Source: an uncultured Bacilli bacterium (lineage in GTDB: Bacteria > Bacillota_I > Bacilli_A > RF39 > UBA660). From it: a DNA stretch of 64,000 nt. Positions 19,718-33,825 of this stretch are shown piece after piece; the stretch's first letter is position 1, and the number at the start of each line of letters is the position of its first letter. The stretch lies in contig CALVIG010000002.1 of the NCBI GenBank assembly GCA_944329425.1, positions 593-64,592 on the forward strand. Direction: 5' to 3'. The notes beneath the pieces were generated by a model. The model was not told the DNA's origin. It made no database searches and saw only the letters and a program-made list of their open reading frames with translations. The position numbers and the translations under genes are program-made.

Positions 19718-19738
19718 CAGAAAGGTGTGAAAGTTTTT

Positions 19739-20647
19739 ATGGGACTAAGAAGTAAGTTAAATAAAATGAAAAGTTTTTTATTTGATGAAGAGGAAGATGA
19801 AAAAGAAATTAAAAAAACTCCAAAAATTTCTTTAAAAAAAGACGTAAAAAAAGAAAAAATTAAGGAAGAGCAAGATGATTTTTCTAAGACTCAAGAAATA
19901 GAGGAATTATATTTCGAAGATGTTTCCGAAAATAGTATTGAAAAGACTAAAGAAATAAAGTCTAGAGCTACTAAAATAGAACCAGAATTTAAATTTCCTG
20001 AGTTTAACGATGATGATTTTGCGGTTGTAAGAACTAAACCAGAACCAATTATTAAGCCCGTAAGGGAGGAAGTTAAACCGGTTTTATATCAGGGAAGTAA
20101 AAGAAAAGAAGAAACAAAAAAATTTAAGCCTAGCCCTATAATTTCACCTATATACGGATTATTAGATAAAGATGGTAACACGATACAAAATGATTCTAAA
20201 AGTCATGATGGTAGTAGCCAAAAAGAAGAAGTTTCATTAGATATCGTTAGAAAAAAAGCTTATGGAGCCTTAGACGAAGAACTTGAAAACACGATGAAAC
20301 GTTTAAGTAAAAAAACAATAGAAGAAGCAGAAAAAGATATGGAAGTTGAAGAAAAAGAACTTTCTAGAACTAAACAAAAAGCAAAAAAAGTTGAAGAGAC
20401 AAAACCTGTTGTTATTTCAAAAGAGGATTTGGAAGCGGATGACGATGATGATATGATATTACCAAATATCAATTTTAAGGAAATAGACGTTGATAAGGAA
20501 AGATTAAAAAATAATTCTGGTAAAAAAAGTGTAAAAGAAAACATAGAAAAACAATTAGATGACGATGACGATGATGACGACACTAAGGAACAAGATTTAT
20601 TTAATTTAATTGATTCAATGTATCAGAAAGAAGGTAAGGAAGATTAA
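19739..20647 (+). CDS. Hyper-acidic Lys/Glu/Asp-rich protein with SepF-like N-terminal amphipathic helix (about 302 aa)
   Basis: Track ORF 19727-20647. ATG at codon 5. N-terminus MGLRSKLNKMKSFLFDEEEDE resembles the SepF membrane-binding helix, but no SepF core domain is present. Contains poly-Asp runs. Confidence 0.4.
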   Translation: MGLRSKLNKMKSFLFDEEEDEKEIKKTPKISLKKDVKKEKIKEEQDDFSKTQEIEELYFEDVSENSIEKTKEIKSRATKIEPEFKFPEFNDDDFAVVRTKPEPIIKPVREEVKPVLYQGSKRKEETKKFKPSPIISPIYGLLDKDGNTIQNDSKSHDGSSQKEEVSLDIVRKKAYGALDEELENTMKRLSKKTIEEAEKDMEVEEKELSRTKQKAKKVEETKPVVISKEDLEADDDDDMILPNINFKEIDVDKERLKNNSGKKSVKENIEKQLDDDDDDDDTKEQDLFNLIDSMYQKEGKED

Positions 20648-32289: not shown

Positions 32290-32462
32290 CTTTACAAATC
32301 ATAAAAATTATTGTATACTTATAAAGTAATTTTGATATGAAGGAAAGAAGATTGTATTTATCTCACCCGATTACTAAAGTAATGGGTTAAACGCCAAACT
32401 ATAAATAAATTATGTTTTATATGCGTTTTTAGGGTAAATACAACTTTGTATTTGCTTTTTTT
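32290..32462 (+). ncRNA. L20-binding autoregulatory leader of the infC-rpmI-rplT operon (with intrinsic terminator/attenuator)
   Basis: About 170-nt structured leader upstream of infC. Ends in hairpin AAATACAA..TTGTATTT plus T7 (about 32436-32462) immediately before the infC SD, as in the Bacillus L20 leader. Confidence 0.5.
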
Positions 32463-32477
32463 ATGGAGGTGCTTAAC

Positions 32478-33005
32478 ATAGCAAAAGAAAAAGACATGCC
32501 AATTAATGATCAGATTAGGGTAAAACAAATGTTGGTAATAGGTCCTAATGGTGAACAATTGGGAATTAAATCAAAGGATGAAGCTTTAACTTTAGCTTCT
32601 TATGCTGGGTTTGATTTGGTTTTAATCAATGATAAGGGTGAAAATCCAGTTTGTAAATTAATGGATTATAACAAGTTTAAGTATGAGAAGAAAAAGAAGT
32701 TAAAGGAATCTCAAAAGAAACAAAAAGAAAATAATGCAGAAACAAAAGAATACCGATTATCACCAAACATTGATGTACATGATTTTAATACCAAACTTAC
32801 AAATGCTAGAAAGTATTTGGAAAAGGGACATAAAATCAAGTTATCAATTCGTTTTAGGGGGCGTGAAATGCAATTTACCGACAAAGGTAAAGAAGTTTTA
32901 CTAAGGTTTGCAGATGAATTAAAAGAAGTTGGTGCACTAGAAAGTGCTCCGGTTCTTGATGGAAGAAACATGATGGCTATGCTTAGCCCGGTAAAGAATA
33001 AGTAA
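32478..33005 (+). CDS. infC: Translation initiation factor IF-3, probably initiated at AUA
   Basis: Track ORF starts at ATG 32463, but that ATG is part of the SD (ATGGAGGTG). In-frame ATA lies 6 nt after GGAGGTG, whereas the next ATG is 24 nt away. The protein from ATA (IAKEKDMPINDQIRVKQMLVIGPNGEQLGIKSKDEAL...) is collinear with B. subtilis IF3. Non-AUG (AUU/AUA) initiation is a known IF3 autoregulatory feature. Confidence 0.8.
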   Translation: MAKEKDMPINDQIRVKQMLVIGPNGEQLGIKSKDEALTLASYAGFDLVLINDKGENPVCKLMDYNKFKYEKKKKLKESQKKQKENNAETKEYRLSPNIDVHDFNTKLTNARKYLEKGHKIKLSIRFRGREMQFTDKGKEVLLRFADELKEVGALESAPVLDGRNMMAMLSPVKNK

Positions 33006-33027: not shown

Positions 33028-33231
33028 ATGGCAAAAAAAACACAAAAAACTCATAAAGGAACTAAGAAAGTATTAAACGTTAGACAAAGTGGTACTATCA
33101 CAATCGGAAGACCAGGATCAAGACATAATACTGGTTCTAAGAACGCTGCTTATAACAGAAAAAACAGAGCAGGATCTAAATTAAGTAAAGCTGATTCTAA
33201 TAGATTAAAGAGAATTATTGACACATTATAA
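33028..33231 (+). CDS. rpmI: 50S ribosomal protein L35
   Basis: 67 aa, very basic. Position between infC and rplT. Confidence 0.75.
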   Translation: MAKKTQKTHKGTKKVLNVRQSGTITIGRPGSRHNTGSKNAAYNRKNRAGSKLSKADSNRLKRIIDTL

Positions 33232-33258: not shown

Positions 33259-33825
33259 ATGGCAAGAGTAAAAAATGGTGCTGTAACTAAAGCACGTCAT
33301 AAAAAAGTATTAAAGGAAGCTAAAGGATATTTTGGAAGTAAACATCGTTTATATAAAACTGCAAAAGAACAATTAATGCATTCTAGAGTTTATGCATACA
33401 GGGATAGAAGACAAAATAAACGTAATTTTAGAAAATTATGGATTGTACGTATTAACGCTGCATGTCGTGAAAACGAAATTAGTTATTCAAGGTTTATTAA
33501 TGGTTTATCAAAAGCAGGTATTACCGTTAACCGTAAAATGCTTGCTGAAATAGCAATTGATTCACCAAAGGCTTTTACTGATTTAGTTATAATAGCTAAG
33601 GATGCTTTAGAAGGAAAAATGCCAAAGGAAGCAAAAGCTTCAGTAGCTAAAGCTGACTCAAAAAAAGAAGTTAAACAAGAAACTAAAAAAACTCCAGCAA
33701 AAAAAGAAGAAAAAGAAGATATATCAAAATTAACCGTAGCTGAGTTAAAGAAAATGGCTAAAGAAAAAGGTATCGAAGGATATACTTCTATGAAAAAGGC
33801 TGAATTATTAGAGAAACTAGCATAG
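33259..33825 (+). CDS. rplT: 50S ribosomal protein L20 with about 70-aa C-terminal extension ending in a Rho-N/SAP-like motif
   Basis: The first ~118 aa are canonical L20 ([26 protein letters not shown]...). They are followed by a K/E/A-rich linker and [31 protein letters not shown], which fits the Rho termination factor N-terminal (SAP-like) helix-extension-helix motif. Single uninterrupted ORF. Confidence 0.8.

Follow-up and report, generated by a model that had tools for sequence, protein, structure and literature searches.

The ribosomal proteins (r-proteins) of bacteria are usually treated as near-invariant. To our knowledge, bS1 is the only one of them normally credited with connecting the outside of the ribosome to RNA or DNA. 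All L20 chains solved from bacteria are 113 to 124 amino acids (aa) long and lack a C-terminal extension. In the ribosome, the C-terminal globular domain of L20 lies on the surface, where it contacts L21 and L13; the N-terminal extension of the protein lies buried, with H25 on one side and H40/41 on the other (PMC2672003). Outside bacteria, the C-terminal 40-aa Rho-N motif of Arabidopsis RHON1 binds, on its own, fragments of 16S and 23S rRNA and untranslated regions of mRNAs in gel shifts, at 80 to 800 nM (PMC3458557). Here, we analyzed a 64,000-nucleotide stretch of DNA (hereafter, the window; contig CALVIG010000002.1, positions 593 to 64,592; 29.3% GC) from an uncultured Bacilli bacterium of the order RF39, in which rplT encodes a 188-aa bL20 that ends in a helix-extended-helix (HeH) domain. 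We followed this tail through related genomes, other r-proteins, and public protein collections.

A Rho_N-type domain at the C terminus of L20

The rplT gene and the three parts of its product map to the window as follows.

33259 to 33825 (including the stop codon), + strand: rplT, a single open reading frame (ORF) with an ATG start, encoding a 188-aa bL20 with a C-terminal extension
33259 to 33618, + strand: bL20 core, residues 1 to 120; PF00453, 154 bits; Foldseek match to solved L20 chains
33619 to 33720, + strand: disordered Lys/Glu-rich polyampholyte linker, residues 121 to 154; predicted local distance difference test (pLDDT) score of <50 at residues 124 to 152
33721 to 33822, + strand: HeH (Rho_N/SAP-like) domain, residues 155 to 188, at the extreme C terminus

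The Ribosomal_L20 family (PF00453) aligns to residues 3 to 109 with 154.3 bits, across profile positions 1 to 107 of 107, and Foldseek matched the core to over 50 solved L20 chains (probability, 1.00; 45 to 70% identity). Rho_N (PF07498), for which the gathering cutoff is 24.9 bits, matches residues 157 to 186 of the full-length protein with 34.1 bits; when the 35-aa tail is scanned by itself, the score rises to 38.1 bits (E = 1.5e-9). HeH/LEM (PF12949) scored 20.4 to 25.4 bits on the tail, under its cutoff of 28.9, and SAP (PF02037) reached its cutoff only with the isolated tail fragment, not with the whole protein. The Pfam scan of the L20 protein returned no families beyond L20 and those of the HeH type. 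Because neither a Rho_RNA_bind oligonucleotide-binding fold (OB-fold) nor an ATPase domain is present, we conclude that the protein is a bL20 with a bona fide Rho_N-type HeH domain and not a Rho factor.

The AlphaFold2 model of the full protein has helices at residues 160 to 170 and 180 to 187, beyond the disordered linker. A tail-only model is confident, with a mean pLDDT of 82.5 and ∼90 over the HeH; it superposes best on the N-terminal bundle of Escherichia coli Rho and then on SAP domains, and LEM domains were also matched. The HeH fold was judged from this model, Foldseek with the whole model against the PDB having returned L20 cores only. When the sequence profile of the tail was compared with the PDB, the only matches were Rho N termini (8hsj, E = 7.6e-5; 7oqh; 3l0o), the SAP domain of Ku70, and FluMu gp35; no ribosomal chain was among them, and such a tail is absent from all solved ribosome structures.

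A sequence-only reading of this DNA had described an L20 fused to a Lys/Glu-rich linker and a Rho_N/SAP-like C-terminal motif at 33613 to 33825, that is, residues 119 to 188 and the stop codon of the rplT product. The single 188-aa ORF contains verbatim both the linker and the tail strings that it quoted. Its structural reading of the final segment as a Rho_N/SAP-like motif is correct by these profile and fold matches.

To place the tail among relatives, we used 80 species-level genomes (GTDB representatives of the order RF39, gut Bacilli), which together with the window give 81 sequences. Below, L numbers denote related genomic or metagenome loci, and P numbers denote representatives of public protein clusters. 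In all 80 related loci, rplT including the tail is one continuous ORF of 172 to 208 aa, and the exact L20 protein of the window is present on 127 public contigs. A frameshift, which the sequence-only reading had also considered unlikely, and an assembly artifact were rejected on these grounds. The feature lies far beyond chance. The best 120 protein clusters (77 to 99% identity) all combine PF00453 with PF07498 and are 178 to 205 aa long, apart from two length outliers (P0008 and P0026) that are assembly duplications of the L20 core. The related loci are assigned to uncultured gut Bacilli, "Tenericutes," Mycoplasma sp. CAG:776, "Candidatus Scybalousia," and "Candidatus Aphodocola"; the last of these (L011), with an L20 that is 87% identical, belongs to GTDB order RF39, family CAG-433 (PMC8035907).

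Across the 81 sequences, the core is constant at 120 aa, with a mean identity of 0.79 and a nonsynonymous-to-synonymous ratio (pN/pS) of 0.26, and the terminal 34 to 35 aa have a mean identity of 0.65 and a pN/pS of 0.41; both ratios are rough, as synonymous sites are close to saturation. The linker ranges from 18 to 54 aa (median, 34), and its sequence is essentially unconserved; it is composed of 31% K, 20% E, 11% T, 11% V, and 9% A, with a mean net charge of ∼+2.6. The tail consensus opens with D-[LI] and ends with [ML]-A-K-E-K-G-[IV]-E-G-Y-[ST]-[ST]-M-K-K-A-E-L-[LIV]-x-x-L, in which the Gly and the Lys-Lys are invariant. By these measures, the tail is under purifying selection and the linker drifts freely.

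Tail-bearing ribosomal proteins and exchange between them

A hidden Markov model (HMM) built from the 81 tails was run on the ORFs in all six frames of the window and of the 80 related loci. Within the 64-kb window, it matched only L20 and revealed no other tail carrier; bS16 and an S1-domain protein encoded there are without a tail. In about 40 more distant RF39 loci, the model matched a second gene directly downstream of rplT, encoding a uS2 with its own K/E-rich linker and terminal HeH (Pfam S2, 329.9 bits; Rho_N, 37.7 bits). Many RF39 genomes have the unusual gene order rplT-rpsB-tsf; the sublineage of the window has holA after rplT.

A metagenome scan seeded with the tails of L20, bL21, and uS2 recovered 87 tail-bearing ORFs: 37 bL20, 35 bL21, 10 uS2, 1 bL27, 1 six-domain bS1, and 3 fragments. 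The choice of seed partly explains the predominance of these three proteins; it included no tail from bL27 or bS1. In all 87 ORFs, the tail ends 0 to 5 residues before the stop codon. The carriers other than L20 are found at the following loci and clusters.

Tailed uS2: L017:3660-4580, ∼38 other loci (L019-L080), and L083, L087, L090, L091, L101, L102, L106, L111, and L129
Tailed bL21: P0275, P0282, and ∼115 further clusters; metagenome loci such as L096-L160
HeH-tailed bL27: L107:3385-3876; P0399-P0462
HeH-tailed bS1: L144:3195-5132; six S1 domains, 645 aa from the first ATG; Rho_N, 37.4 bits; one 71-kb marine contig

Among these, bL21 with a linker and HeH (∼157 to 172 aa; PF00829 plus PF07498) is the usual form of the protein in many Flavobacteriaceae that have been cultivated, for instance in the genera Leeuwenhoekiella, Mesonia, Salegentibacter, Christiangramia, Zunongwangia, and Psychroflexus. 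The bL21 of Flavobacterium johnsoniae (PDB 7jil_R) has 147 aa, and its alignment to HeH-bearing bL21 ends at residue 126; the paper on the F. johnsoniae ribosome does not discuss a bL21 extension. The bL27 fusion (PF01016 plus PF07498; Rho_N, 38.1 bits) was confirmed independently of the scan in about 65 clusters, of which the named ones are Crocinitomicaceae. The adjoining bL21 of Crocinitomicaceae has a normal length of 103 aa.

The tails of L20 and uS2 could be compared in 39 RF39 genomes that bear both. Within the same genome, they share 75.6% amino acid identity, versus 63.5% (L20-L20), 61.3% (uS2-uS2), and 60.3% (L20-uS2) between genomes. The L20 and uS2 tails have a nucleotide identity of 0.798 within genomes versus 0.679 between genomes, and at identical residues the codon (synonymous) identity is 0.77 within versus 0.63 between genomes (permutation P ≤ 2e-4). 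In individual genomes, the two stretches of tail DNA are 93 to 98% identical, and they match without a mismatch over as many as 69 nucleotides (nt); such homogenized 3′ ends of rplT and rpsB are found in L017, L027, L030, L034, L058, and L076. Because synonymous sites are homogenized too, coevolution with a partner was rejected as the cause of the within-genome likeness, and the pattern indicates gene conversion, the two tail-coding segments being direct repeats separated by ∼1 kb. It follows that the L20 and uS2 tails are functionally interchangeable, and, as tails within a genome are more alike than orthologs, that the function of the module is independent of the carrier protein.

The likeness also crosses phyla. 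The L20 tails of RF39 and the bL21 tails of flavobacteria share 64% identity, about as much as tails within RF39 do (65%), and the identity to nonribosomal HeH repeats is 42 to 45%. This may come from horizontal transfer, from a ligand in common, or from nearness to the consensus.

Elsewhere, the same position is occupied by other sequences. The bL27 of other Bacteroidota (Maribellus mangrovi and related organisms; 183 to 226 aa) carries a helix-hairpin-helix (HhH) after an A/P/K/E-rich linker, with HHH_5 scores of 33.7 to 36.7 bits (cutoff, 27; P0483, P0490, P0466, and P0505). At two RF39-like loci (L101:3416-3982 and L102:3475-4065), the L20 proteins of 188 and 196 aa have an extension of 68 to 76 aa made of KKTTTKK and AKKPAAK repeats, with net charges of +12 and +11; no HeH was found for these L20 genes in any frame, and the adjacent uS2 retains its HeH. 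The HeH, the HhH, and the H1-like basic tail are three unrelated structural solutions at the C termini of surface-exposed r-proteins in these lineages. Generic nucleic acid binding is the sole property common to them.

Beyond r-proteins, a 44-aa tail searched against 1.84 billion representative proteins gave 908 significant matches, with Rho_N present in 149 of the best 150. Most matches are nonribosomal proteins with 2 to 8 HeH repeats at 30 to 60% identity; the single-copy matches at 66 to 85% identity are mostly L20 and uS2 fragments and assembly chimeras, plus one bL21 (P0220). Examples of the proteins with 2 to 8 tandem Rho_N/SAP-type repeats are P0121-P0152, and the best 150 matches include protein kinases (6), ADP-ribosyltransferase exoenzyme domains (5), and phage VG15 proteins (5). 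We set aside many of the short "carriers" that this search returned, regarding them as fragments or assembly chimeras rather than as architectures. In chimeras among public metagenome proteins, an identical linker and tail are joined to unrelated N termini (a PolC-like piece, uS2 pieces, or signal peptides); examples are P0008, P0026, P0186, P0188, P0189, and P0196, and some L20 proteins have duplicated cores. We conclude that the repeated tail causes chimeras and that single-contig "novel architectures" bearing it need caution. In the window itself, a 306-aa ORF at 19727 to 20647, with no Pfam match and no tail, has an N terminus, starting MGLRSKLNKMKSFLFDEEEDEKE, that is like the N terminus of P0245, a 191-aa representative that ends in an HeH tail and may be a chimera.

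Proposed function and alternatives

For the tail, we infer nucleic acid binding, a choice of RNA, and a physiological role: on balance, it probably acts as a flexibly tethered, low-specificity nucleic acid-binding arm that prefers RNA. The C-terminal domain of L20 is on the solvent surface, and the HeH would therefore be displayed on a leash; given the contact between L20 and L21, the two commonest 50S carriers are direct neighbors. By polymer scaling, the 34-residue leash would typically let the HeH extend ∼4 nm, and its contour length would be ∼13 nm. A near-neutral linker would avoid collapse onto rRNA and leave the HeH free to serve as a low-specificity nucleic acid "hand," the favored ligand of which would be nascent or neighboring rRNA or mRNA. 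[quoted passage not shown] RHON1, in which one such motif binds RNA on its own, offers the nearest experimental parallel, and the HhH and basic tails found at the same position are likewise generic nucleic acid binders. Linker length varies widely (10 to 54 aa in L20 and 37 to 69 aa in the ten metagenome uS2 carriers measured), and such variation tells against a single, fixed docking site. The tail may be regarded as one interchangeable module, used also by uS2 in RF39 and by bL21, bL27, and bS1 in Flavobacteriales.

Several considerations weigh against this reading. Since double-stranded DNA is the best-known ligand of SAP, LEM, and HhH domains, the preference for RNA is weak. The N-terminal bundle of Rho is not its primary RNA-binding site. 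The net charge of the tail is only ∼+3. The carriers are located on different faces of the ribosome (the 50S solvent side and the 30S platform/mRNA exit), with no obvious single geometric role. K/E-rich extensions arise easily in genomes as AT-rich as that of the window, and the cross-phylum likeness of the tails could mean nearness to a generic Rho_N consensus rather than a shared ligand.

More tentatively, we propose that one mobile "ribosomal HeH tail" module, present on at least five r-proteins, kept uniform within genomes by gene conversion, and replaced in sister lineages by HhH or histone H1-like tails, may represent an unrecognized class of appendage that couples the ribosome surface to nucleic acid. 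If so, possible roles include mRNA capture supplementing bS1, a tether to nascent transcripts or the nucleoid, and ribosome-ribosome bridging. Among the options raised by the sequence-only reading, that of a lineage-specific ribosome decoration is supported.

The tail might instead tether ribosomes to DNA. A SAP-like HeH that binds AT-rich double-stranded DNA would keep ribosomes, or free L20 and uS2, near the nucleoid, for instance in favor of cotranscriptional translation or assembly on nascent rRNA. The resemblance to SAP and HhH domains and the AT-rich genomes fit such a tether, but we regard it as unlikely. RNA dominates the surroundings of the ribosome, where a low-specificity binder would be mostly occupied by RNA; low GC may simply ease the evolution of K/E-rich linkers; and the sole isolated C-terminal Rho-N motif assayed, that of RHON1, binds RNA (PMC3458557).

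It is more doubtful still that the HeH is a protein adaptor, docking a specific protein (for instance, an RNase or helicase, RNA polymerase or NusA, a hibernation factor, or another ribosome) and thereby bringing it to both subunits. The concerted evolution of the tails reaches synonymous sites, as gene conversion would and selected coevolution would not; the replacement of the HeH elsewhere by an unrelated HhH or a plain basic tail is hard to fit to a specific interface but easily fits generic binding of nucleic acid; and no candidate partner was identified.

A role specific to L20 is improbable. In this explanation, the main functional proposal of the sequence-only reading, the tail alters binding to that leader or to 23S rRNA H25/H40-41 and thereby autoregulation or early 50S assembly. 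L20 is both an early assembly protein and an autoregulator (PMC1865079, PMC2672003); an L20-leader-like element, with a subthreshold match to RF00558, lies upstream in the window; and the RHON1 motif binds 23S rRNA fragments (PMC3458557). Yet the module also occurs on uS2, bL21, bL27, and bS1, which are unlinked to the infC leader, and gene conversion makes the tails of L20 and uS2 interchangeable, so an effect on the leader is disfavored. The range of linker lengths speaks against a fixed docking geometry, and some RF39 L20 proteins do without the HeH. Least credible of all, and in large part already refuted by its conservation, is a nonfunctional tail, whether a neutral low-complexity expansion with a hitchhiking domain or an assembly or frameshift artifact: AT-rich genomes do readily produce K/E-rich runs, and the tail does give rise to assembly chimeras in public data (with duplicated cores in P0008 and P0026), but the ORF is continuous in every one of the independent genomes and the exact protein recurs across contigs, conservation of the tail is far above that of the linker, and cultivated organisms of a second phylum, whose genomes are complete, show an independent recurrence of the architecture.

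Beyond the RNA-preferring arm that we favor, the conservation of the tail on several r-proteins of both subunits and in two distant phyla, together with its unrelated substitutes, implies selection for linking the ribosome exterior to RNA or DNA. This would bear on mRNA recruitment where use of the Shine-Dalgarno (SD) sequence is weak or absent (Bacteroidota) or where bS1 is possibly reduced (small-genome Bacilli), as well as on transcription-translation coupling and ribosome assembly. Cultivated carriers of the bL21 tail (Leeuwenhoekiella, Christiangramia, and Salegentibacter) make the question directly testable. In practical terms, the tail matters for chimeric protein predictions in metagenome assemblies and for marker gene pipelines, in which the lengths of L20, uS2, and bL21 are inflated.

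The rplT operon and comparison with known systems

In the window, rplT is the third gene of an operon with the order infC-rpmI-rplT, flanked by rsgA and rpe upstream and by holA downstream of rplT. The elements preceding rplT are as follows.

32339 to 32469, + strand: L20-leader-like 5′ untranslated region of infC-rpmI-rplT; RF00558, 30.9 bits, subthreshold; a terminator stem and U-run ending at the infC SD sequence
32478 to 33005, + strand: infC (IF3), with a likely ATA start; IF3_N and IF3_C domains
33028 to 33231, + strand: rpmI (bL35); Ribosomal_L35p, 31.5 bits (gathering cutoff, 28.9)

For infC, the in-frame ATA codon at 32478 is the likeliest start, rather than the ATG listed at 32463 (region 32463 to 32481 of the window). 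That ATG overlaps the SD sequence GGAGGTG, and its frame runs into a stop in L002. An ATA, ATC, or ATT lies 8 to 9 nt after the SD sequence GGAGGTG of infC in 69 of 69 related loci. A noncanonical start codon is classic for IF3.

The sequence-only reading had placed an infC leader just upstream of these genes. The RF00558 match there has a conserved position, but its score (30.9 bits, E = 0.0026) is below the gathering score of 58.7. Relatives have likewise subthreshold matches at the equivalent position (L013:2070-2206, 52.8 bits; L041:2113-2234, 37.6 bits). The element is probably, rather than established to be, a divergent RF39 version of the L20 leader that is missed by the curated Rfam model.

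In its core fold, infC-rpmI-rplT operon, and leader-like element, the tailed L20 thus resembles canonical bL20 (Bacillus subtilis, Staphylococcus aureus, E. coli, and Mycoplasma pneumoniae), and it differs from the canonical protein of solved ribosomes by its C-terminal extension. Like known r-protein extensions, this tail is a clade-specific addition to a universal r-protein. Those extensions are short segments that pack on rRNA, whereas the HeH tail consists of a long disordered tether and a domain that folds independently; it is found on several r-proteins and exchanged between them.

Compared with Rho (1a62 and 8hsj), L20 has only an ∼35-aa subdomain, which is C-terminal in L20 and N-terminal in Rho, and the carrier is an r-protein, not a termination factor. 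Eukaryotic SAP and LEM-HeH domains (PIAS1, Ku70, THO1, DEK, and emerin) bind double-stranded DNA, chromatin, or BAF in nuclei; the L20 tail falls under the Pfam HeH cutoff and passes that of SAP as an isolated fragment only. The best functional analog is RHON1, in which a Rho-N/HeH motif likewise occupies the extreme C terminus after a charged low-complexity stretch (PMC3458557). Its carrier is a chloroplast RNase E partner from a different kingdom; we do not claim homology of the carriers, and RNA binding by the L20 tail is inferred.

The combinations of L20, bL21, and bL27 with Rho_N are visible in precomputed Pfam annotations, whose source names are just "50S ribosomal protein L20/L21/L27." A full-text literature search, with most subscription journals outside it, found no description of Rho_N/HeH tails on bacterial r-proteins, which is absence of evidence only. 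We view the tail as a known domain that has been used to extend an r-protein in particular lineages; the pattern of multiple carriers in two phyla, with gene conversion and analogous replacements, gives it an interest beyond the single L20 case.
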